This document shows positions 2,383 through 57,579 of a stretch of 57,772 nt of DNA, one piece after another. The stretch is taken from NCBI GenBank assembly GCA_045632705.1, contig JAZQXE010000086.1, positions 1 through 57,772 of the forward strand, given 5' to 3'. A model generated the notes under the pieces. It was not told the origin of the DNA. It saw nothing but the letters and a program-made list of their open reading frames with translations, and did no database searches. Every line of letters begins with the position of its first letter. Positions within the stretch are counted from its first letter, which is position 1. Position numbers and translations under genes: made by a program. The DNA is from Eubacteriales bacterium. GTDB taxonomy: Bacteria; Bacillota; Clostridia; Oscillospirales; CAG-272.

Positions 2383-4878
2383 ATGAAACGATTTAAAGTA
2401 ACGGGAATGAGCTGTGCCGCGTGCAGTGCGCGAGTAGAATCTGCGGTAAACAAGCTCGAGGGCACGCAACTGTGTACCGTAAATCTCCTGACCGGATATA
2501 TGAGCGTTGAAGGTAACGCAAGCGAATCGGAGATAATAGACGCCGTCACACGCGCGGGTTACGGTGCCAAGTTGCTCTTAAATTCAGACAAGCCGCTCCC
2601 CGAGGACGCTCAAAAAAACGCCGACAACGACAAAAAAAGCATCATTTGGCGCCTCGTTGTGTCCTGCGTTTTGCTTCTTTCGTTAATGTATATATCAATG
2701 GGGCACAATATGCTCTCGCTTCCTCTGCCGGCGCTCCTCTCTGACTCCCCTGCTCTCATCGGAATATGTCAGTTCTTTCTTTCGCTGGCAATATTGCTCA
2801 TAAACTGCAGATTTTTCATCTCGGGAGCAAAAGGCGTGCTGCACGGAGCGCCCAATATGGATACGCTCGTTGCTATCGGCTCGGGGGCGTCCTTCTTCTA
2901 TAGCTCCTGCCTTTTGATCCGTATATTCACGACAGCGCCCTACGAAGCACAAATGCATCTGCTGCACGGACTGTACTTTGAATCTGCAGCAATGATACTC
3001 ACTCTCATCACGGTGGGAAAGCTGCTTGAAGCAAGTTCAAAGAAAAAGACGACCGCCGCACTCAGTGGGCTTGTGAAGCTTTATCCTAAAAACGCAGTTC
3101 TGCTCGTTGACGGCAAGGAAATATCGGTAGATATCGACAAAGTGAAAAAGGGAGACGTTTTCGTCGTCCGGGCAGGTCAAAGCATACCTGTGGACGGTGT
3201 CGTTATCGAAGGAAACGCCTCCGTCGACCAATCCTCTCTCACGGGAGAGTCGGTCCCCGTTGAAAAAGGGATATCAAGCGAGGTCTACACCGCAACGACA
3301 AATACGAACGGATACATTGTGTGCAGAGCGACGAACGTCGGAGAAGACACGACGCTCTCACAGATAATAAGAACGGTCAACGACGCCGTCACGACGAAAG
3401 CTCCGATAGCGAAAGCGGCAGACAAGGCGGCAGGGGTATTCGTACCCGTCGTTATAACAATAGCCGCAATAAGCACGGCGGTATGGCTGATATGCGGTGC
3501 GGATATCGGATACGCTCTTGCCAGAGGAATATCCGTACTCGTTATAAGCTGCCCCTGCGCACTCGGGCTTGCAACCCCCGTAGCGATCATGGCGGCAAGC
3601 GGACGAGGAGCGGCAAACGGCATTCTCTTTAAAAATGCATCCGTGCTTGAGCTTGCGGGAAAGGCTCGGATAGTTGCGTTTGACAAAACGGGAACGCTCA
3701 CCAAGGGCGTACCTACCGTTACCGACGTTATCCTGCTCGGAGCAAGCGACGAGGAAACTCTTCTGTCGCACGCCTACGCACTTGAATCAAAGAGCGAGCA
3801 TCCGCTCGCACGCGCTGTCGTCTCGTACGCAGAGGCAAGAGGCGCAAGCTGTCCCGAATGTTCGGAGGTCAAGATACTGACGGGTACGGGCATATCCGCT
3901 ACCGTCGGAGGTGAGGAGTGCTTTTGCGGTAACGAAAAGCTCGTTGAGAGTGTAGCCGTCGTAAACGACGAAGCAAAAGAAAAAGCCGTACTGCTCGCAA
4001 AGGAAGGCAAAACGCCCCTGTTTTTCGCAAAAGGCGGCACGCTCATCGGTATAATAGCCGTTTCGGACGAGCTGAAGGAGGACAGCGCGCAAGCCGTCAA
4101 GTCGCTGCGCGAGGCAGGCATTGAAGTCGTGATGATAACGGGAGATAACGAGAACACCGCGCAGGCGGTAGCAAGCAAGCTCGGTATCAGCTCGGTCATG
4201 GCGGGAGTTCTGCCTACCGAAAAGGAAGCGGCAATAAGAAAGCTAAAAGAAAACGGCACGGTCGTTATGGTCGGAGACGGTATAAACGACGCCCCTGCAC
4301 TCTGCTCTGCCGACGTTCCGATAGCGATAGGCGCAGGCTCTCAAATAGCGCTGGACAGTGCCGAGATAGTGTTGCCGGGCAACAGCGTATACGACGTCGT
4401 CCGTACGATCAAGCTATCACGCAAGACTCTTCGCATAATACGGCAAAATCTTTTCTGGGCGTTTTTCTACAACGCTCTCGGAATACCGCTGGCGGCGGGT
4501 GTGTTCGTTAGTCTTACGGGATGGGAGCTTGAGCCGATGTTTGGCGCAGCGGCAATGAGCATGTCGAGTCTGTTCGTAGTGCTAAACGCTCTGCGGCTCA
4601 ATTACGTTGATATAGGAAACGATAAAAAAGGATCAAGATCCACCCACATAGAAAGGAAGAAAAAGAAAATGAAAAAGACGATGAAGATCGAAGGTATGAT
4701 GTGCCCGCACTGCGAGGCAAGAGTCAGATCTATACTCGAGGGTATAGACGGCGTTGAGAGCGCAGAGGTCAGCCACAAAAACGGTACCGCTATCCTCACG
4801 CTGACAAACGACGTAGAAAACGACGTCCTCGTATCAAAGGTCAGCTCCGAGGGTTACCGCGTGACCGACTGCAAGTGA
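2383..4878 (+). CDS. copA: Copper-translocating P1B-type ATPase with N-terminal and C-terminal heavy-metal-associated domains
   Basis: 831 aa. N-terminal HMA GMSCAACSARVE, TM CPC motif SCPCALGLATP, phosphorylation site DKTGTLT, GDGINDAP hinge, and a C-terminal second HMA MMCPHCEARV. Confidence 0.95.
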   Translation: MKRFKVTGMSCAACSARVESAVNKLEGTQLCTVNLLTGYMSVEGNASESEIIDAVTRAGYGAKLLLNSDKPLPEDAQKNADNDKKSIIWRLVVSCVLLLSLMYISMGHNMLSLPLPALLSDSPALIGICQFFLSLAILLINCRFFISGAKGVLHGAPNMDTLVAIGSGASFFYSSCLLIRIFTTAPYEAQMHLLHGLYFESAAMILTLITVGKLLEASSKKKTTAALSGLVKLYPKNAVLLVDGKEISVDIDKVKKGDVFVVRAGQSIPVDGVVIEGNASVDQSSLTGESVPVEKGISSEVYTATTNTNGYIVCRATNVGEDTTLSQIIRTVNDAVTTKAPIAKAADKAAGVFVPVVITIAAISTAVWLICGADIGYALARGISVLVISCPCALGLATPVAIMAASGRGAANGILFKNASVLELAGKARIVAFDKTGTLTKGVPTVTDVILLGASDEETLLSHAYALESKSEHPLARAVVSYAEARGASCPECSEVKILTGTGISATVGGEECFCGNEKLVESVAVVNDEAKEKAVLLAKEGKTPLFFAKGGTLIGIIAVSDELKEDSAQAVKSLREAGIEVVMITGDNENTAQAVASKLGISSVMAGVLPTEKEAAIRKLKENGTVVMVGDGINDAPALCSADVPIAIGAGSQIALDSAEIVLPGNSVYDVVRTIKLSRKTLRIIRQNLFWAFFYNALGIPLAAGVFVSLTGWELEPMFGAAAMSMSSLFVVLNALRLNYVDIGNDKKGSRSTHIERKKKKMKKTMKIEGMMCPHCEARVRSILEGIDGVESAEVSHKNGTAILTLTNDVENDVLVSKVSSEGYRVTDCK

Positions 4879-5050: not shown

Positions 5051-8000
5051 ATGAAAAACAAAGCCATTTCACTTATCGTGTCTCTTTCCTTTTTGCTCTC
5101 GTCAGCGCCCCTTTACACGTCAGCTGACGCTGTCAATGCGAAAAGCACAACGGATACGCTCCACTCAATATCCGAGCTGAATCTCGAAGCGGACGCGCTC
5201 GACTCGCATAGCGGCGTCACCTCGCTCAGTACGCTTGAAAGCGACTACCGACGCTCGTACAGAATAGACAACGAGGAGTTTATAGACGAGGGATACATCT
5301 GGTATCCGAGAACAAAAAAACTCTCGAGCGGCAAATACATAATGTTTTTCCAGGATGGAAGATGGGGTCCTAATATATACTATACCCTCTCCGACGACGG
5401 ACTCAATTGGGAAAAGCCGACGTATCTGTTCAAGGCTCATATAACCGAGGACGGTAAATTCTTGAGAAATTACGCGACCGCAGACGCTATTGAGCTTGAA
5501 AACGGAGACATACTCGTTTCGGCTATCTTCCAGCCCTCGAGAATAAGCTCCGACACCCCTGCCGTCAGCCGTTGGGATATGCTCAATCGCGGAATCATCA
5601 CCAAGATATCGCACGACGGCGGTCAGAGCTTTGAGGACGAGCAGATAATCTACCACGGCAGATGCTGGGAGCCGAGCTTTTTGCAGCTTCCCGACGGCTC
5701 GGTGCAAATGTACTTTACTCAGTCAGGTCCCAAGGACGCCGTCTACGGCTCTGCTCTCGGCTCGCACGTTTCAAGCGGCGTTGGTATGTTCACGTCCTGC
5801 GACAACGGTGCAAGCTGGACGCCGACCACCCTCACCTATCCTTACGTTACGAAAAGAATAGTGCAAAATCCGATATACGAGTATAACGGCATCACGATAC
5901 TGACAGACCAGATGCCGGTTTCCGTTCTCTTGCACGACAACGAAACGATCGTAATGGTCGTTGAAAGTATGCGCCCCGATCAAAGCGGACACAGTACGAG
6001 TATCATCCGCTCTCACGATTTCTTTGAAACGACGCTGGAGGAAGACGAATACGGTCCCTCCGACAGAGACGACTTCATAGTATCGGGAGCCGCCCCTTAC
6101 ATAGCGCAGTTCCCCTCGGGTGAGATCGCGATATCAAACTTCCACTCACACAAGCACAAGGTATATCTCGGAAACGAGCTCGGCACGGAATTTGATTTTA
6201 CGCGCGCCTATATTCCCTTAAAAAATCAGACGGTAGCTATGTGGGGAGACCTGTTTGTAGCAGACAGCCACACCCTCATTGCAAGCGCAGGTGATACGAT
6301 AGTTGAAGCCGGCGTAGAGCTGAATCTCACATCAAGCGGAATGGGCTTTGGTACTATGGTATTAAATCATAGGATCGACGCAAAGAAGCTCACGGCAACC
6401 ATCGACGCGTCAAGTACAGAATGGGCAAACAACACCGACGCTCTGTTCGTCGGAAGCGAGTCTCAGGCACAAGTTTCCGTCCGCTACGCTCACGACGAAA
6501 ACTACGTATACGCTCTGGCAGAGGTACTCGACGACGACGTCTGCTCCTCTGACGCTATCACGTTATACCTCAAAGGCGAAAGCTCGGACGAGGTTATAGT
6601 CGCTATGGTAAACTCAAAAGGCGAGTACACCGTAAAGAAAAACACCTCCTCCGCTCAGCAGAGCGTCAGCGGTGTCGCATGCAGCGTAAAAAAATACACC
6701 TCGCAACTCAAGGGATACGCCGTTGAGCTGGCGCTCCCCATCTCGCTTTTCTCGGGTGAGGGGACGCTCAGAACCTTCGTCAAGCTGACGAACAAGGACG
6801 GGGGTAAAACCTACGTCGATACCTTTGACGGCGTGAGTGAATCTGACGATAGCACATGGCACATGATAGTACTTTCAAGTACTCTTGCTCTCCCCAACGT
6901 CTACTCAAGCGAAAGCGTTAGCGTATGGGACGGAGTAAGTGCCAACGTCGGCTGGTATGCAAAAAACACGGAGGCTGATGAATTTTTCATAAATTCAGCC
7001 GAAGAGCTCTACGGCTTGTCACTTCTCTGCTCTTACTTTGACAGCGGAGCAAGCCTGCTCAGAAATTCAAGACTCTACTACGACTCGGAGTATAACGTAA
7101 TACTCGACAAAGAAAAAATAACCGACGCTACCCCCTACGTCAAGGGAACGAAGCTCGTCGGAGAAACGATCCGACTGACCTGCGACGTTGACCTTGACTC
7201 ACACCGGTTCTTGCCTATCGGAAGCACGGGCTCGTTCCAAGGACTTATCTTTGATGGAGGCGGCCACACGATAAAGAATCTCTACGTAAACGCCGAGACG
7301 GCAATGCACAAAACGCTCACCACACAGTACTTCTTCGGTCTTTTTGCGGCAACCGCTTCAAACTGTACAGTACAAAATCTGCGCATTGAAGATCCCGTAT
7401 ACGACGTAAACGTACCGAGCAGCGCAAAGAGCATCTACCTCGGAGGCATATCCGCTTATTCAACGGGCAATACGGCATTTTACGACTGTATAGTCGATCA
7501 TCCGAAGATAATTTACCGTCCGGCAGACGGGATCCAACCCACCGCGTGCCTTTTCGGAGGTCTCATCGGTAAATACGAGACGCCCCAAAGACACGAAAAC
7601 GTAACGGTTTACGACTACGAGATAGTAGACGAGAAAGATCTCGGAAACTGGACGAGCGACTCGTCACTTCTCTTTGGAAGAATAACGAAAACGGGGGTAA
7701 GCGCAAGCTTTTACAAGTGTAAGGTCTACGAAAAAGAAGAAATACTCATAAGAAAAGAAACTCCCGTCTGGGACGGAGTGAGCGCCAACGTCGGATGGTA
7801 CGCAAAAAACACGGAGGCCCCGGCCTTCTACGTTTCAAACGGCGAGGAGCTGTACGCACTCTCTCTGCTTTGCTCATCCTTTGATCCGAAGGGCAGTTTG
7901 TTTGGCGATGCGAAGCTCTATTACGACGAAAACTACGACGTTATCTTTGACAGATCAAAGATAAACGAAAATACCGCCTACGTTACAGGAACGAAACTCG

Positions 8001-25404: not shown

Positions 25405-25590
25405 TTTATCTGCCTGACTGCGTAGCAGAAAGATCATCCTTTGTATTTTTTCCATCGGTCAGCTTTGTTTTGAGCTTACGCTCATATTTGGACTCACCGT
25501 ACGGCAAGGCTGTGCCGCGGAGGTATCCGCCGAAATTTCGATAAACCTCCGACCTCGTCAACCGCATACGCGGCCTGGCGCTATCCAACG
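25405..25590 (-). ncRNA. glmS ribozyme: glmS ribozyme (GlcN6P-dependent self-cleaving riboswitch)
   Basis: The minus strand reads A|GCGCCAGGCCGCGUAUGCGGUUGACGAGGUCGGAGGUUUAUCGAAAUUUCGGCGGAUACCUCC.... This matches the conserved AGCGCC cleavage site, the GACGAGG core and the GGAGG-UUAUCGAA-UUUCGGCGGAU-CCUCC core. The predicted cleavage is between 25582 and 25581. It lies directly 5' of glmS. Confidence 0.92.
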
Positions 25591-25603
25591 TGGGATTTAG
25601 CAG

Positions 25604-52073: not shown

Positions 52074-52739
52074 ATGGAAACGAAGATAAAAGCAGTCATA
52101 TTCGACCTTGACGGCACGTTGCTCGATACTCTGACCGACCTTGCCGCTTCCGTCAACGCCGCTATGATACGCTACGGATATAAAGAACACTCAAAAGAGG
52201 CAATATGCTCGTTTGTCGGAAACGGAGTTGCAAAGCTGATCGAGCGTGCTCTGCCGGGAGGACGTGAATGTGCGGATTTTGACAACGTGCTTGAATATTT
52301 CAAGGCACACTACAAAGAGCACATGTACGACTCTACCGACGCCTACGACGGAATATACGGCACCCTCAAAGCTCTCAAAAAGGAGGGGTATAAGCTCGCC
52401 GTAGTTTCAAACAAATTCGACGCTGCCGTAAAGGAGCTGTGTCAAAGATATTTCTGTGAATACGTAGACGTTGCCATCGGAGAAAACGAAAGTGCGGGAA
52501 TAAAGAAAAAGCCCGCCCCCGATACCGTCAACGCCGCTTTGGAGCTGCTCGGCATTTCAAGTGGCGAAGCTGTCTACGTCGGTGATTCGGACGTGGACGT
52601 GCACACCGCAGAAAATGCGGGAATGGAATGTATCTCGGTGCTATGGGGATTCAGAGATATTGAGTTTCTGAAAGGCGAGGGCGCGCGTCATTTTGCAAAG
52701 ACCACCGACGAGCTTTTCGAGTTGATAGTAAATATGTAG
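52074..52739 (+). CDS. HAD-superfamily phosphatase (phosphoglycolate phosphatase-like)
   Basis: 221 aa. Motif I VIFDLDGTLLDT, motif II VVSNK, motif III/IV K...VGDSDVDVHTAENAG. Confidence 0.85.
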   Translation: METKIKAVIFDLDGTLLDTLTDLAASVNAAMIRYGYKEHSKEAICSFVGNGVAKLIERALPGGRECADFDNVLEYFKAHYKEHMYDSTDAYDGIYGTLKALKKEGYKLAVVSNKFDAAVKELCQRYFCEYVDVAIGENESAGIKKKPAPDTVNAALELLGISSGEAVYVGDSDVDVHTAENAGMECISVLWGFRDIEFLKGEGARHFAKTTDELFELIVNM

Positions 52740-52744
52740 ATCCG

Positions 52745-52838
52745 GACAACCGGTTAAACCGGTGGTTTGCACATCCAAATACGATGCAACAACAGGCTGC
52801 ATCCACAAAGAAACGCCTGACACTTTGATACCGCATTA
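52745..52838 (+). repeat. Left copy of the 94-nt direct repeat
   Basis: GACAACCGGTTAAACCGGTGGTTTGCACATCCAAATACGATGCAACAACAGGCTGCATCCACAAAGAAACGCCTGACACTTTGATACCGCATTA. It begins 5 nt after the HAD stop codon. Confidence 0.9.
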
Positions 52839-52847
52839 CAATTACCG

Positions 52848-52877
52848 GCAGCCGCTCACGTGCGGCTGCTTTTTTTG
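52848..52877 (+). terminator. Intrinsic terminator following the left repeat
   Basis: Arms GCAGCCGC and GCGGCTGC with loop TCACGT, then TTTTTTTG. Confidence 0.8.
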
Positions 52878-52907
52878 TAAATCAATAAAACATATCGTCA
52901 AAACCAC

Positions 52908-52936
52908 TTGACATTTTGGCAAGTGCGCGATATAAT
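52908..52936 (+). promoter_or_regulatory. Consensus sigma-A promoter of the XRE-ImmA operon
   Basis: TTGACA (52908-52913), exactly 17 nt, then TATAAT (52931-52936). It lies 40 nt upstream of the ATG at 52976. Confidence 0.7.
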
Positions 52937-52975
52937 ATAATTGCTATTTATGATGACAGAGAAAGGAAAAAGACC

Positions 52976-53287
52976 ATGGGAAAGGATTTAGGTTTGCGAA
53001 TAACGGAAACGTTGCAAAAAAGAGGAATGACTCAAAAGGAGTTGGCATTGCGTATTGGAGTAACCGAAGCTGTTATCTCGAGATATATATCCGGAGACAG
53101 AGACCCTAAACCTGACGCTTTGGCAAATATCGCAACCGCACTCAATACCACGTCGGATTATTTGCTCGGCATTGAAAATGAAGAGTTTGATCACCCAAGA
53201 ATTCGCCGTATGATTGCAAGAAATGCTTCAAAAATGACGGAAAAAGAAAGAAAAGAACTGATTGACGCATTATTTGGGGAGGAGTAA
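52976..53287 (+). CDS. XRE-family helix-turn-helix transcriptional regulator
   Basis: Start at ATG 52976 (SD AAAGGA). MTQKELALRIGVTEAVISRYISGDRDPKPDALANIATALNTTSDYLLG is a canonical HTH_3 domain. Confidence 0.88.
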   Translation: MGKDLGLRITETLQKRGMTQKELALRIGVTEAVISRYISGDRDPKPDALANIATALNTTSDYLLGIENEEFDHPRIRRMIARNASKMTEKERKELIDALFGEE

Positions 53288-53289
53288 TA

Positions 53290-53841
53290 TTGGGAATTTC
53301 TTTATCACACGCACGATACGAAAAAATCAAACAGATAATCGTTGATCTCTTTGTTCAGTATAATATTCATTGTATTCCTGTCAGTGCATTTGAGGTAGCG
53401 TTGAAAATGGGTATTCCTGTCGTCCCCTACTCAGCAATCCCGGAAAGCAAACGCCATCTTCTTTTCAAGGAAAGCGAAGATGGCTTTGTGATAGAAAAGT
53501 ACGAGGGAGAATGGTATATTTATTATAACGATCAAAAAGAATACGGAAGAATCAACAATACCATTATGCACGAAATCGGACATATTGTTTTAAACCACAG
53601 TGAAGATAGTGAGCTTGCCGAAAAAGAAGTAAAATTCTTCGCCAAGTACGCGCTTGCACCTCCGGTCCTTATCCACAAGCTTGGTCTCAAAAACGCATTT
53701 GAGGTTTACGCGAATTTTGATGTCAGCATTGAAGCGGCAGTCTATGCTTACGACTACTATCAAAAATGGCTGACTTTGGGTAGGAATGAGTATACCGATT
53801 ATGAATTACGATTGCTTCGACTTTTTGACGAGGCAGTATAA
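53290..53841 (+). CDS. ImmA/IrrE-family zinc metallopeptidase (COG2856)
   Basis: TTG start 3 nt after the XRE stop (SD GGGGAGGAG). HExxH motif in IMHEIGHIVLNH. Confidence 0.85.
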   Translation: MGISLSHARYEKIKQIIVDLFVQYNIHCIPVSAFEVALKMGIPVVPYSAIPESKRHLLFKESEDGFVIEKYEGEWYIYYNDQKEYGRINNTIMHEIGHIVLNHSEDSELAEKEVKFFAKYALAPPVLIHKLGLKNAFEVYANFDVSIEAAVYAYDYYQKWLTLGRNEYTDYELRLLRLFDEAV

Positions 53842-53934
53842 TAAATACCGAAAAAGGAGTGATGCCTCATGATCTACCGTAACATCAAGGGTTGCGCCAA
53901 CAACGCTTGATGACTTCAAACAAATACACAGAAG

Positions 53935-53968
53935 GATATGCTAAAGCACGCCACTTAGATGCAAATAT
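53935..53968 (+). repeat. Inner 34-nt direct repeat, copy A
   Basis: GATATGCTAAAGCACGCCACTTAGATGCAAATAT, 32/34 identical to 55746-55779. Confidence 0.8.
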
Positions 53969-54052
53969 GAGTGTTTTAGCCTACCCTTACTTAACTATTG
54001 CCAAAAGGCAAAATCACATTACCTCGTTAAGAGGAGAAAGGTTAAAATACTT

Positions 54053-54724
54053 ATGTCAAAAACAATAATTGACGACGGCTTTAACGCCGAACTCGTTTCA
54101 AATGCGTTCTTTGATGGCATTATGGAGATCCCAATTCTCGAAAAGCCCAAAGAAATCATTATTCCATCCGCACTCATTCCCTTCACGCAAATGAAGCGAA
54201 GTGCAACCAAAACAGAAGCTGTTCATTTTTACGAACACGATAAAAGGTTTTCCGACGTGCTTACTTGCACCAAGGAATTGCTCCCCGAACTCTCAAAGTT
54301 TTCCGCTGTCATATCTCCCGATTGCTCTCTATACCGAGATATGCCGTTGTGCTTGCAAATTGCAAACACGTATATGAACCGAGCAGTAGGACATTATCTG
54401 CAATCCAATGGATTATACGTCATTCCTAACGTTCGCTGGGGAGACGAACGCAGTTTTACGACTACGGAACTTCCGGAAAAATTCGCATTTCTCGGTGTGC
54501 CAAAAAACAGTATTGTTTCCATCGGCACATACGGTTGTATTCAAAGCCGAGAAAACAAGGAGTATTTCCGCAAAGGATTGTCGGCAATGCTTGACGAGCT
54601 TACACCGAAAGTTGTTCTTGTATACGGCGGTATGCCCGAGAGTATTTTCGGAGAATTCAAGAGTAGAACTGAATTTGTCAATTATCCCGACTGGACTTCT
54701 ACGAAAAGAAGGAGGGCGGTATAA
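54053..54724 (+). CDS. DUF4417-like protein (function unknown)
   Basis: 223 aa. SD GAGGAGAAAGG upstream. The family assignment is by recollection of DUF4417-type sequences (FYEHDKRF...ISPDCSLYRDMP...IPNVRWGD) and needs an HMM check. Confidence 0.6.
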   Translation: MSKTIIDDGFNAELVSNAFFDGIMEIPILEKPKEIIIPSALIPFTQMKRSATKTEAVHFYEHDKRFSDVLTCTKELLPELSKFSAVISPDCSLYRDMPLCLQIANTYMNRAVGHYLQSNGLYVIPNVRWGDERSFTTTELPEKFAFLGVPKNSIVSIGTYGCIQSRENKEYFRKGLSAMLDELTPKVVLVYGGMPESIFGEFKSRTEFVNYPDWTSTKRRRAV

Positions 54725-55170
54725 TGGGCTCTGGTATTTCTGGTGGATATTCCAATACAAAAGGAGCATCTTCATCAAGCGAAGCTCTTGTAAAGCAGTT
54801 AGAGCAAAGCGGTGTGAAATTCTCAAAAACGGATATGGTGTTTGTCACCAAGGATAAAACGGGACAAGTTGTATGGCTTGAAAAAGGAAGTTCAAGTGCA
54901 GGACTAAAGCATATTCTTGATGGTGATGGAAAGACGCCGGGACACGCTGAGGATTTCCAACGTGCTTTTGGGATTTCTCGATCAGAAATTCCTGCACATA
55001 TCGAAAAAGTTATCACAAACGGTACGGTGGTTAATAACCAACTAAAGCCGGTAAGAAACCGAATGGGGTATGAAAGAACATATTATTATAACGGAGAGTA
55101 TTATGTCGTTACCGGAATAGGTTCCAACGGATACATCGTTTCTGCTTACCCTAAGCGTATGCGCAAATAA
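54724..55170 (+). CDS. Small toxin-like protein with a Gly/Ser-rich N-terminus (family unassigned)
   Basis: 148 aa. The ATG overlaps the DUF4417 stop (TAATG). N-terminal MGSGISGGYSNTKGASSSS linker-like segment, then GLKHILDGDGKTPGHAEDF...YYVVTGIGSNGYIVSAYP, which is reminiscent of polymorphic-toxin C-terminal domains. Confidence 0.5.
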   Translation: MGSGISGGYSNTKGASSSSEALVKQLEQSGVKFSKTDMVFVTKDKTGQVVWLEKGSSSAGLKHILDGDGKTPGHAEDFQRAFGISRSEIPAHIEKVITNGTVVNNQLKPVRNRMGYERTYYYNGEYYVVTGIGSNGYIVSAYPKRMRK

Positions 55171-55182
55171 GGAGGATTTAAA

Positions 55183-55503
55183 ATGATTAAAATAAAAATT
55201 ATGACCGAATTTCTTCACAGCCCGATTTGGACTTACGAGGATGGCATTGTTACAGATGACCTTACATTAGTATCAGAAGACAAAGAATTGCAAGCGTTAA
55301 GTGAAAAAATCGAAGCTATGTTTTCGAGTTATTATGAATTTGACTCGCATGACCAAGCGTGCTGGTTTAATTCCGAACAAGAAAAAGCAGACAAAGAGAT
55401 TATGCTTGATTTAATCACTCAGCTTATCTCTCGCCTGAACGAGATCAACGATGGCTCATTTGTAATTGAGGATTTAGAAACAGAACGATTAAAGCAATTA
55501 TAA
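55183..55503 (+). CDS. Small acidic protein, immunity/antitoxin-like
   Basis: 106 aa. SD AAGGAGGA. It begins 12 nt after the toxin-like ORF and is visibly rich in Asp and Glu. Confidence 0.5.
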   Translation: MIKIKIMTEFLHSPIWTYEDGIVTDDLTLVSEDKELQALSEKIEAMFSSYYEFDSHDQACWFNSEQEKADKEIMLDLITQLISRLNEINDGSFVIEDLETERLKQL

Positions 55504-55514
55504 AAAGAACTCAT

Positions 55515-55703
55515 ATGAAAGAATTAGATGTAGTGCGAATGGTTCAAGAGTTCAAAGGGTTGCCGATATGCACATAAGGAATCATCGTCCACAAATACGA
55601 CGATTCAATGTATGAAGTTGAGTTTTTTAGCAAAGACGGAAATACACTTGATGTAATCACCACACCCAAAAGTATAATCGAACTCTCCAAATCATACAAA
55701 TAA
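55515..55703 (+). pseudogene. DUF4926-like gene interrupted by an in-frame TAA
   Basis: Translation is MKELDVVRMVQEFKGLPICT*GIIVHKYDDSMYEVEFFSKDGNTLDVITTPKSIIELSKSYK. A single stop at 55575-55577 splits an otherwise contiguous small beta-rich domain. Confidence 0.6.
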
Positions 55704-55708
55704 AAAAA

Positions 55709-55740
55709 CACCAAGAAACTACGCCAATAGCTTCTTGGTG
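55709..55740. terminator. Hairpin after the DUF4926 remnant
   Basis: Arms CACCAAGAA and TTCTTGGTG. The A-run lies on the plus-strand 5' side, so it looks like a terminator mainly on the minus strand. Confidence 0.35.
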
Positions 55741-55745
55741 CCCGT

Positions 55746-55779
55746 GATATGCTAAAGCACACCACTTAGATGCAGATAT
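55746..55779 (+). repeat. Inner 34-nt direct repeat, copy B
   Basis: GATATGCTAAAGCACACCACTTAGATGCAGATAT. Confidence 0.8.
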
Positions 55780-55895
55780 ATTATATCACAAAATCGCAAA
55801 AATGCAACACATTTTTTATTTTTTTCAAAAAACGTGCAATTTTCAAATTCTGTATACAACACAATTTTGAGATTTGATTCATATACCAAAACCAA

Positions 55896-55989
55896 GACAA
55901 CCGGATGAACCGGTAGCTTGAACAGCCAAATACGATGCAACAACAGGCTGCATCCACAAAGAAACGCCTGACACTTTGATACCGCATTA
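55896..55989 (+). repeat. Right copy of the 94-nt direct repeat
   Basis: GACAACCGGATGAACCGGTAGCTTGAACAGCCAAATACGATGCAACAACAGGCTGCATCCACAAAGAAACGCCTGACACTTTGATACCGCATTA. Confidence 0.9.
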
Positions 55990-56031
55990 AAAAAACGGAA
56001 GCATACTTTTAGAAAGTATCTTCCGTTTTTA
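55990..56031. terminator. Bidirectional terminator (rluD 3' end, right repeat)
   Basis: Arms AAAACGGAAGCATACTTT and AAGTATCTTCCGTTTT (stem with one mismatch). Confidence 0.8.
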
Positions 56032-56033
56032 TT

Positions 56034-56996
56034 TTATTTATCGCGCATTACGCGCAGCTTTGCGAGTATTGCTTCAAATTCGGCAGGCATATCGCACTCA
56101 AAACGCATCTGCTCGTTGCTTTTCGGATGGCGAAGAACAAGCTCTCTTGCATGCAGTACCTGTCCCGAGAGAAGACTTTTATTTTTCTTTTCAAAATCCG
56201 TATTGGGAGTACCGTACACCTCGTCTCCCATGAGTCTGTGACCGAGAGAAGCGAGATGGACTCGTATCTGATGAGTACGTCCCGTCTCAAGCACCAGCTC
56301 AAGATATGTAAACTGATAAAAGCGCTCAAGAACTCTGTAATGGGTAACGGCATCGCGCACGTGAGCGCTTGCATCGGCGTTTTTATATACTGCCATCCTC
56401 TTTCTGTCGGTGGGATGTCTGCCTATCGGCGCGTCGATAGTTCCCTCGTCCTCTTTGAAGTTGCCGACCGCTATCGCGCGGTAGACTCGCCTCGCTGAAT
56501 GTTCCTTTATCTGCTCGGAAAGGTCGATATGCGCCGCGTCGTTTTTGGCGCAGACGATAAGACCGCTCGTGTCCTTGTCTATCCTATGAACGATACCGGG
56601 GCGCAACTCACCGCCAATGCCCGACAGAGAATCTCTGCAACGGTACATAAGGGCGTTGACAAGAGTACCCGACTCGTTTCCTGCCGCGGGGTGTACGACC
56701 ATGCCCTTTGCCTTGTTCACGACGATGATATCGTCGTCCTCGTAGACTACGTCAAGCGGCAAGTCCTGCGCTTCAAGCTCGGTAAGGACGGGGTCGGCAA
56801 GCGTTACGCTTATCTCGTCTCCCACCTTTAGCTGATGCTTTTTTTGAGGGATGAGGGAATTGACTCTGACCTTTCCGTCTTCTATCTGTTTTGCCGCGTA
56901 GCTTCTGCTCATATCAAACTTCTGCGAAACGAAGCTGTCAAGTCTGCACGGCTCGTCCGTTTCAACGACCGTATACGTCAGTACGCGCTCACTCAT
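56034..56996 (-). CDS. rluD: 23S rRNA pseudouridine synthase, RluD/RluA family
   Basis: Start placed at ATG 56996 (MSERVLTYTV...). S4 domain RLDSFVSQ...GKVRVN and catalytic HRIDKDTSGLIV. It overlaps the lspA stop by 8 nt. Confidence 0.9.
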   Translation of the reverse strand: MSERVLTYTVVETDEPCRLDSFVSQKFDMSRSYAAKQIEDGKVRVNSLIPQKKHQLKVGDEISVTLADPVLTELEAQDLPLDVVYEDDDIIVVNKAKGMVVHPAAGNESGTLVNALMYRCRDSLSGIGGELRPGIVHRIDKDTSGLIVCAKNDAAHIDLSEQIKEHSARRVYRAIAVGNFKEDEGTIDAPIGRHPTDRKRMAVYKNADASAHVRDAVTHYRVLERFYQFTYLELVLETGRTHQIRVHLASLGHRLMGDEVYGTPNTDFEKKNKSLLSGQVLHARELVLRHPKSNEQMRFECDMPAEFEAILAKLRVMRDK

Positions 56997-57579
56997 CTTC
57001 ATTCTCTCCCGACGCGTCCGCTGCGTCAGAGTTGCCGCTTTCCCCCGCTGCCTCTGCCGAGTCGGCGTCTGCGGGAGCGGCCACGGTCGACTCTGCATCG
57101 GCAAGCTCTTTCTTCGTCTTTTCCGTATCAAAGAAAAGCACGTATATAAACATCAGCGCAGCGCCTATGCAAACGAGCGAATCCGCAACGTTGAAACACG
57201 GAAAATCTATCGGAACAAAGTAAATAAAGTCAACGACGTATCCGAGAGCTACCCTGTCTATCATATTTCCGATACCGCCCGATACGATGAGCGAAAGCGT
57301 AATTCCGAGAAACAGGGGGATATTCTTTCTCTTGACTATCACAAGCGCCACGACGGCAATAATGACGACCGTACTCACAGACATAAAAAGCCATCTGTGC
57401 TCGTCAAGCATTCCGAAAGCCGCACCGTCGTTTGATATACATCTGATGTGAAAGACACCCTCCCATACCTTAAGGTCGGGGGATGCGTCTATCGCAAAAT
57501 TTGCGCTGACCAGATATTTCGTTAGCTGGTCAAGACCAACTCCGAGCACTACTATCAAAGCGTAAATAAGTAATACCAT
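56989..57579 (-). CDS. lspA: Lipoprotein signal peptidase II with a 45-aa acidic C-terminal extension
   Basis: GGIGNMIDRVALGYVVDFI and FNVADS motifs. The tail is DTEKTKKELADAESTVAAPADADSAEAAGESGNSDAADASGENEDE. Confidence 0.9.
   Translation of the reverse strand: MVLLIYALIVVLGVGLDQLTKYLVSANFAIDASPDLKVWEGVFHIRCISNDGAAFGMLDEHRWLFMSVSTVVIIAVVALVIVKRKNIPLFLGITLSLIVSGGIGNMIDRVALGYVVDFIYFVPIDFPCFNVADSLVCIGAALMFIYVLFFDTEKTKKELADAESTVAAPADADSAEAAGESGNSDAADASGENEDE

Follow-up and report, generated by a model that had tools for sequence, protein, structure and literature searches.

Direct repeats around a foreign islet in a Eubacteriales genome are probably decayed right ends of an IS200-type insertion sequence

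The closest described relatives of the repeats reported here are insertion sequences (ISs) of the IS200 group, which belongs to the IS200/IS605 family and includes IS200 of Salmonella, IS608 and ISDra2. Pairing between a guide sequence and the cleavage site is known for IS608 (PMC3201880, PMC3597680), and remnants of IS200/IS605 elements that consist of ends only have been described, for example in Halanaerobium hydrogeniformans (PMC7290912). We analysed a pair of direct repeats that bracket a 3-kb foreign islet in a 57,772-nt stretch of DNA (hereafter the window, at its full length) from a Eubacteriales bacterium (assembly GCA_045632705.1, contig JAZQXE010000086.1, positions 1 to 57,772 of the forward strand), which an earlier note had interpreted either as the attL/attR footprint of site-specific integration or as two copies of an unannotated structured RNA. 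Judged by alignment to relatives, each repeat is instead a decayed, non-coding right-end (RE) module of a clostridial IS200-group element, and we consider it likely that decayed modules of this type placed around foreign DNA explain the locus as a whole. The repeats resemble the PATE remnants in being transposase-less leftovers of IS ends (PMC7290912), but PATE keep both end hairpins whereas the window copies have the right end only, and the latter should therefore not be mobilisable in the canonical way. "Solo right-end remnants" is an accurate label for them. Nothing at this locus falls outside the known kinds of element, and the value of the result is that of a correction, not of a discovery: direct repeats with a perfect core around an islet are easily mistaken for att sites or new RNA motifs, and a solo RE with a working-looking terminator can pass for a 3' untranslated region (UTR) element or a small RNA (sRNA) gene.

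A repeat search of the window places the pair at 52745-52841 and 55896-55992 (97 nt, 93% identity, spacing 3151 bp) and confirms the structure described in the earlier note, namely a perfect distal core of 64 nt (52775-52838 and 55926-55989) next to a diverged proximal part of 30 nt (24/30 identical), in which two of the six differing positions fall in the loop of an ACCGG/CCGGT stem. The core occurs only twice in the 57.8-kb window with up to three mismatches allowed (≤3), and shuffled sequences gave no occurrence. Two further claims of that note were upheld: a plus-strand intrinsic terminator stands behind each copy according to terminator prediction and folding (stem 52847-52870 with a T run to 52877, and ~55996-56025 in the fold), and no recombinase is encoded between the copies, as Pfam, PHROGs, NCBIfam and PADLOC detect no integrase, transposase or relaxase domain in the five open reading frames (ORFs) of the cassette. 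ARAGORN found no tRNA or tmRNA at the repeats, and Rfam gave no match to either window copy, the only match in the repeat region being one of chance level to STnc240 on the host terminator.

The affiliation of the repeat rests on its neighbours in other genomes. In a BLAST search against plasmid records, window positions 52824-52877 match two records of Monoglobus pectinilyticus, and both matches sit immediately 3' of an annotated IS200/IS605 tnpA gene on the opposite strand, the Monoglobus TnpA scoring 145 bits on the NCBIfam model transpos_IS200 (cutoff 55). The whole 94 nt together with the terminator of copy 1 align to the ~140 nt that separate the tnpA stop codon from the terminus of the Monoglobus element, and the same alignment holds in Ruminococcus albus, Vescimonas and other Monoglobus copies. 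A degenerate pattern derived from this RE alignment retrieves 118 stretches in species-representative genomes, all of them Clostridia; one genome frequently holds several, and they frequently lie at contig ends, as is expected of a repeated IS. Where the contig continues beyond the RE and the module can be assessed (55 cases, by profile search and tblastn), a full-length convergent tnpA is present in 43, a broken tnpA in seven and none in five, so that 50/55 modules adjoin tnpA or its remnant. Copy 1 itself scores 125 bits against the family profile (nhmmer) and is ~80% identical over 135 nt to many RE modules, including those of tnpA-bearing copies. The repeat accordingly belongs to a common dispersed element, a finding that the earlier note had named as one that would speak against its interpretation. 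Many copies with identical ends and unrelated flanks are a property of the family, while the window variant is found only in its own two copies. Exact scans for the window's core variant found none in viral contigs or metagenome contigs, and the family pattern has no match in viral contigs either.

Intact elements of the family are ~760 bp long and comprise a left end, tnpA encoding a Y1/HUH transposase, and a 140-nt RE module which on the window plus strand runs from the tip ([A/G]TCA..AC) through a subterminal hairpin, two small hairpins and a ACCGCATTAC box to an intrinsic terminator. With copies oriented as the window plus strand, their flanks diverge exactly before [A/G]TCA(N)(N)ACC, and this motif is therefore the transposon tip. 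The tip tetranucleotide covaries with a tetranucleotide across the hairpin (CAAG/CTTG, CAAA/TTTG or CATA/TATG). Several traits are shared with the IS200 group: the module of the relatives lies beside a 159-aa Y1 transposase, as in IS608 (PMC3201880, PMC3597680), the family carries a subterminal hairpin only a few nucleotides away from the tip together with a guide tetranucleotide that complements the cleavage site, it inserts beside a fixed tetranucleotide (TTGG), and it has no terminal inverted repeats. The conserved ACCGG...CCGGT stem with loop differences pointed out in the earlier note is indeed present, and is the subterminal hairpin that TnpA would recognise. Unlike the described members of the group, the family has a long RE (140 nt) with an inward-facing terminator. 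Its left end, ~145 nt in length, is always found 3' of TTGG, and a 32-copy left-end alignment places this site nearly always directly behind the hairpin and T run of a host rho-independent terminator, with the insertion co-oriented with the upstream gene.

Covariation was assessed in a 54-sequence alignment for four helices, corresponding to the end hairpin with its extension, two CCCCT...AGGGG hairpins and the terminator. These helices are 94% paired compared with 37-52% for slid controls, and 18 pairs are changed on both sides compared with 7.6 in shuffles (0/500 shuffles reached 18); the end hairpin (helix 1) is 94.6% paired and contributes six pairs with changes on both sides. Two terminator positions are G.U in 38/54 and 10/54 sequences, which reads as C.A on the other strand, and these G.U pairs together with the T run imply that the terminator acts on the strand antisense to tnpA. 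The IS-borne terminator thus faces inward, against tnpA, and is predicted to stop transcription that enters the element from outside. A near-invariant RE box, GTAATGCGGT on the top strand, is an inverted copy of the ACCGCATTAC motif in the tnpA 5' UTR (for example at locus L010, 6561-6585 and 5995-6012), where ACCGCATTAC lies ~15-25 nt upstream of the ribosome-binding site; pairing of the 5' and 3' parts of the tnpA mRNA, or of the single-stranded transposon, through this inverted box is possible. Copy 2 of the window and a mini-remnant at L143 both break at this box or a few nucleotides from it. When a canonical IS copy is compared with Rfam, the RE resembles BjrC1505 (24 bits, gathering score 50) and the left end STnc490 (26 bits, threshold 56), both below threshold. 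We take STnc490 to be the IS200-borne art200 RNA. Kinship of the RE with BjrC1505, described as a single-copy alphaproteobacterial sRNA, was set aside since the likeness is a generic one of a few hairpins and a terminator.

Both window copies are decayed. The IS top strand corresponds to the window minus strand, which is the sense strand of the flanking pseudouridine synthase gene rluD, and the family alignment moves the start of each copy 5 nt leftward of the repeat pair, to 52740 and 55891, the former directly after the TAG stop codon of a HAD-family hydrolase gene. Copy 1 (52740..52879, minus strand) has the tip ATCCGGAC at 52740, followed by the subterminal hairpin (52747-52753 / 52759-52765), an aberrant core, the ACCGCATTAC box and the IS-borne terminator, and its homology ends 1 nt short of the tnpA stop position in complete copies. 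Copy 2 (55891..55989, minus strand) has the tip ACCAAGAC, the hairpin and the same aberrant core, and ends without the IS terminator at CCGCATTA, where it is joined straight to the A run of the native bidirectional HAD/rluD terminator (55990..56030; A run, hairpin and T run in the fold), which has its equivalent in relatives. No tnpA was found in the window by tblastn of the family TnpA, and a left-end profile built from 30 copies has no window match better than E = 2.4; lacking both, the window does not hold a functional IS200/IS605 element. Again unlike IS200-group members, both copies have mutated tips (ATCCGGAC and ACCAAGAC deviate from the family) and an end hairpin mismatched at its base, and neither has the two internal hairpins (helices 2 and 3). 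Complementarity of guide and tip is intact in copy 2 (CAAG/CTTG) and is kept in copy 1 only via G.U pairs, and the tips represent different guide subtypes, TTTG and CTTG. In the central stretch, identity of the window copies to the family consensus falls to 52%, where the lowest value within the family is 63%. The two nevertheless agree with each other there at 50/51 positions, and this aberrant common core indicates that they are sister copies of one odd lineage. They are identical at 26/34 positions in the tip and hairpin part, and the six differences of the repeat are confined to its outer third (P ~0.001 for a uniform spread).

Solo or mini RE remnants also occur at L143, L152, L118 and L075. 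The modules of RE plus terminator in the window (52877-52880) and at L152 (~4642-4650) have an identical end point, 1 nt short of the tnpA stop codon of complete copies, and at L079 (~1150) an IS3-like end begins at the same point. This common inner boundary may reflect a hotspot of deletion or insertion, or may have arisen by chance. As a sign of a mobile 140-nt mini-element it was considered too thin, the L079 case being an IS3-like end behind a module.

The window copies occupy the interval between the HAD-family hydrolase gene (52074..52739, plus strand, Pfam) and the gene for an RluD-type pseudouridine synthase (56034..57131, minus strand, Pfam and relatives), the true start of which probably lies further downstream than the start listed for the ORF, given that relatives are 316-320 aa long. 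Exact look-ups of the HAD and RluD proteins gave no match, which implies that no other record of the species exists. The closest available relatives, with HAD proteins 67-72% identical, keep the order GT2/GtrA, HAD, (terminator), rluD, lspA, ileS. The gap between HAD and the next gene is ~52-64 nt at L001-L005 and contains a bidirectional terminator only, with no RE (at L001 an aldose epimerase gene replaces rluD downstream of HAD), and at L006-L008 the HAD-rluD gap is 160 nt, also with no RE module. The HAD site of relatives is free of RE, and therefore the whole of 52740-55989 is an insertion, both repeats included. The earlier note had envisaged an empty site with HAD, one repeat, terminator and rluD; what relatives have is HAD, terminator and rluD with no repeat.

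For the origin of the arrangement we tentatively favour, at somewhat less than an even chance, homologous recombination of a resident solo RE with an islet-bearing segment. One IS would have inserted behind the rluD terminator, the type of site preferred by the family, and decay would have left of it a solo RE that is cut at CCGCATTA. The islet, located next to a complete sister RE on a segment or circle, would then have entered through one crossover with the resident RE, giving a left copy that combines the resident tip with the incoming IS terminator, and a right copy in which the incoming tip is joined to the truncated junction of the resident, with the exact 64 nt representing the crossover or conversion tract that ends where homology ends. 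All three products expected of a single crossover (left hybrid, right hybrid and identity tract) are observed, and copy 2 occupies precisely the kind of position that the family targets, immediately after a host terminator, with the tip of copy 1 abutting what would be the opposite side of this target. Direct IS copies around acquired DNA, as in a cointegrate or Campbell-type crossover, are comparable in that direct hybrid copies bracket foreign DNA and identity is highest in the exchanged tract; they differ in that homology in the window is only a 94-nt remnant and no donor is observed. On this route, the locus would be one case of a short IS scar probably acting as a homology patch for the entry of a regulator-toxin-immunity islet into a housekeeping intergenic region.

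Several points weigh against recombination at a resident RE. Homologous exchange over 64-94 nt is inefficient, the aberrant core variant is seen nowhere else, and a donor locus with the islet beside an RE was not found among the scanned loci. Even the nearest HAD protein has no more than 72% identity, and the intermediate of HAD, one RE, terminator and rluD is not seen among relatives. Both tips are off consensus, with the consequence that no statement on current activity is possible, and an exact 64-nt repeat that closes a 3151-bp loop could be a product of the assembler.

Among the alternatives, two separate IS insertions flanking an islet already present between HAD and rluD, with subsequent loss of left ends and tnpA and with gene conversion equalising the 64 nt, appear unlikely. 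Such insertions are in keeping with the position of copy 2 right behind a host terminator T run, a favoured site of the family, with the T-rich sequence TTTTATTGATTTAC on the minus strand beside the copy 1 terminator, and with the distinct guide subtypes (TTTG and CTTG) of the tips. However, two insertions, two deletions and a conversion are required, the unique common core makes separate IS sources unlikely, and it is left unexplained why the foreign DNA has an IS end at each of its borders.

It is quite improbable, in our estimation, that TnpA supplied in trans recombined two REs on single-stranded DNA by cutting at both tips, releasing a circle of islet plus one RE that was then pasted into a resident solo RE at its tip. 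The order on the IS top strand (rluD terminator, copy 2, islet, IS terminator, copy 1, HAD stop) is the outcome expected of insertion at the copy 2 tip, where the CAAG/CTTG guide complementarity is kept, and the reaction is chemically plausible given that IS608 TnpA assembles in vitro into cleavage-competent complexes with two RE copies (PMC3597680). Yet there is no tnpA in the window, the tips and hairpin base of both copies are off consensus, and the pattern of 0/64 versus 6/30 differences is unexplained. Moreover, a second RE is present at only 1/118 family loci (stored stretches ≤8 kb), and there at least one copy is a complete IS with tnpA and the other is cut by the contig end, so an RE-cargo-RE arrangement is not recurrent. 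If this mechanism were true, decayed IS200 ends would be docking sites that move defence or toxin islets with neither left end nor integrase. Of the earlier note's account, the observation of repeats around recombinase-free foreign DNA stands.

We regard as very unlikely an assembly artefact or population mixture, in which one solo RE is all that the chromosome has, and the contig took in, at the 64-mer, a separate circle of 3.15 kb, or a variant strain, with one RE. An assembly-graph loop would have the observed geometry (exact 64 nt, a loop of 3151 bp, and all differences lying outside the common segment), but an abundant 3-kb circle with no replication gene is unlikely and the k-mers or reads on which modern assemblers work exceed 64 nt.

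Little credence can be given to the attL/attR reading of an integrase island in the 3' end of a small gene: as with tyrosine-integrase islands, direct repeats with an exact core stand at both ends of low-GC foreign DNA, but the islet has no integrase, no tRNA, tmRNA or Rfam gene that could be the target overlaps the repeat, the empty site of relatives (only 67-72% identical in HAD) has no copy, the same sequence is an IS end at 118 unrelated sites, and homologous islets elsewhere have no repeat. Equally doubtful is a stand-alone structured sRNA gene in two copies, for although the folds of the copies are steadier than shuffles (z = -3.3 and -5.8, mostly owing to the terminators), the canonical family member has its sub-threshold match to BjrC1505 (24 vs 50 bits) and the four family helices do carry compensatory changes, the window copies themselves have no Rfam match, the covariation belongs to the tnpA-bound RE family and is accounted for by transposon end and terminator with the two internal hairpins lost in the window, no conserved promoter was identified in the module, and the GAUGCA/UGCAUC, CAGGC/GCCUG and CAAAG/CUUUG pairings proposed in the earlier note occur only in the window variant, where they replace family helices and have no comparative support.

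The foreign islet between the solo RE remnants (52880..55890, plus strand) has a GC content of 36-43% compared with 45-53% in the flanks, and is absent from the HAD-rluD site of relatives. It opens with a consensus sigma-70 promoter, TTGACA-17-TATAAT (52908..52936, plus strand, 12/12 matches), which is kept in L158, L164 and L165 and is overlapped by the palindrome CACTTG-N9-CAAGTG. The IS-borne terminator of copy 1 is predicted now to end the HAD transcript and to insulate HAD from this promoter. All genes of the islet are on the plus strand. The first encodes an XRE-family HTH repressor, CapH-like (52976..53287; Pfam HTH_3 8.5e-15, PADLOC capH 3.4e-15), and the second an M78/ImmA/IrrE-type metallopeptidase, CapP-like (53290..53841; Peptidase_M78 6.9e-6, capP 1.5e-9, phrog_87 metallo-protease). 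They are followed by a DUF4417 protein (54053..54724; Pfam 1.1e-51, phrog_940 "nuclease" 2.7e-46) and by a putative toxin, the start of which overlaps the DUF4417 stop and which is weakly PBECR1-like, that is, of the Barnase/EndoU/RelE nuclease type (54724..55170; Pfam PBECR1 0.0018, below cutoff). A 106-aa ORF (55183..55503) with no family match in Pfam, PADLOC or PHROGs accompanies the PBECR1-like gene also in L158 and L163 and is a putative cognate immunity protein. The last feature is a DUF4926-like pseudogene (55515..55703) with a stop after 20 codons and 83% nucleotide identity to the DUF4926 gene region of L162, where an intact DUF4926 gene stands behind a DUF6883 toxin; the pseudogene is probably an orphan immunity remnant of toxin replacement.

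Operons regulated by CapH/CapP have been described in defence systems (bioRxiv 10.1101/2022.04.27.489752), and the islet shares with these, and with ImmR/ImmA and DdrO/IrrE, a layout in which an HTH repressor and then an M78 metallopeptidase head the operon upstream of effector genes, with a palindromic operator over the promoter. It differs in its downstream genes, which are DUF4417 and a swappable toxin/immunity pair rather than CBASS; PADLOC matches are limited to the regulators. The XRE and M78 pair is likely to form a switch for the downstream toxin module that responds to DNA damage or single-stranded DNA. DUF4417 is translationally coupled to differing toxin domains by genome, namely PBECR1, DUF6883 with DUF4926, or Ntox50, with a small putative immunity gene, in unrelated chromosomal contexts (L158, L159, L161, L162 and L163), which is the behaviour of a polymorphic toxin/immunity cassette. 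A homologous islet in another Clostridia metagenome-assembled genome (L158) is 73-81% identical at the nucleotide level over ~2.7 kb, from ~52900 to ~55835 of the window, and lies between unrelated genes with no RE module. Partial versions are present in L162, L164 and L165, and the islet is without RE in L162 and L165 as well. Phage relatives of ImmA and DUF4417 (37-48% identity) also have no RE module. The possibility that DUF4417 is a hidden recombinase was rejected: its AlphaFold2 model (pLDDT 82) is an alpha/beta domain with a best PDB fold match of TM 0.44, there is no PDB sequence match, and the fold matches are weak and TIM-barrel-like (TM ≤0.44) with no recombinase fold among them. 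On a metagenome contig (L165, 52-1152) the homologous XRE-ImmA-DUF4417-like module has as its immediate upstream neighbour a 366-aa ORF, the C-terminus of which resembles by eye a type I restriction specificity (HsdS) subunit and would suggest a defence-island context.

A second direct repeat lies within the islet, where a unit of hairpin plus 34-nt box brackets the DUF4417, toxin and immunity genes. Its upstream copy (53935..53968, plus strand) is in the 5' leader of DUF4417, next to a hairpin at 53888-53918, and the downstream copy found by repeat search (55746-55779) is just behind the operon. The latter is part of a predicted antisense sRNA unit on the minus strand (55697..55808), consisting of a promoter (-35 TTGCAT at 55807-55802 and an extended -10 TGn-TATAAT, TGATATAAT, at 55788-55780), the 34-nt copy and a predicted terminator (55743-55706 plus T run). 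The predicted product is a minus-strand RNA of ~75 nt (~55773 to ~55699) complementary to the operon 5' leader, and the duplex of RNA and leader is calculated at -78.5 kcal/mol compared with -41.6 +/- 3.1 for shuffled seeds. The 34-nt pair is also present in L162 (582-610 and 2018-2046), which has a different toxin, and in L158 (~4745-4775 and 6343-6371) four substitutions are mirrored in both copies. The pair could be an antisense regulator or antitoxin RNA, or a repeated leader that serves cassette exchange. A relic of the IS left end had been suspected from the common GCTTTAGCATA sequence and was rejected with the left-end profile. This cargo, with its CapH/CapP-like switch, DUF4417, exchangeable toxin/immunity pairs and possible antisense RNA, may merit a study of its own. 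The sole match of an Rfam scan over the whole window is an unrelated glmS ribozyme/riboswitch at 25446-25593 on the minus strand (RF00234, 71 bits, gathering score 37).

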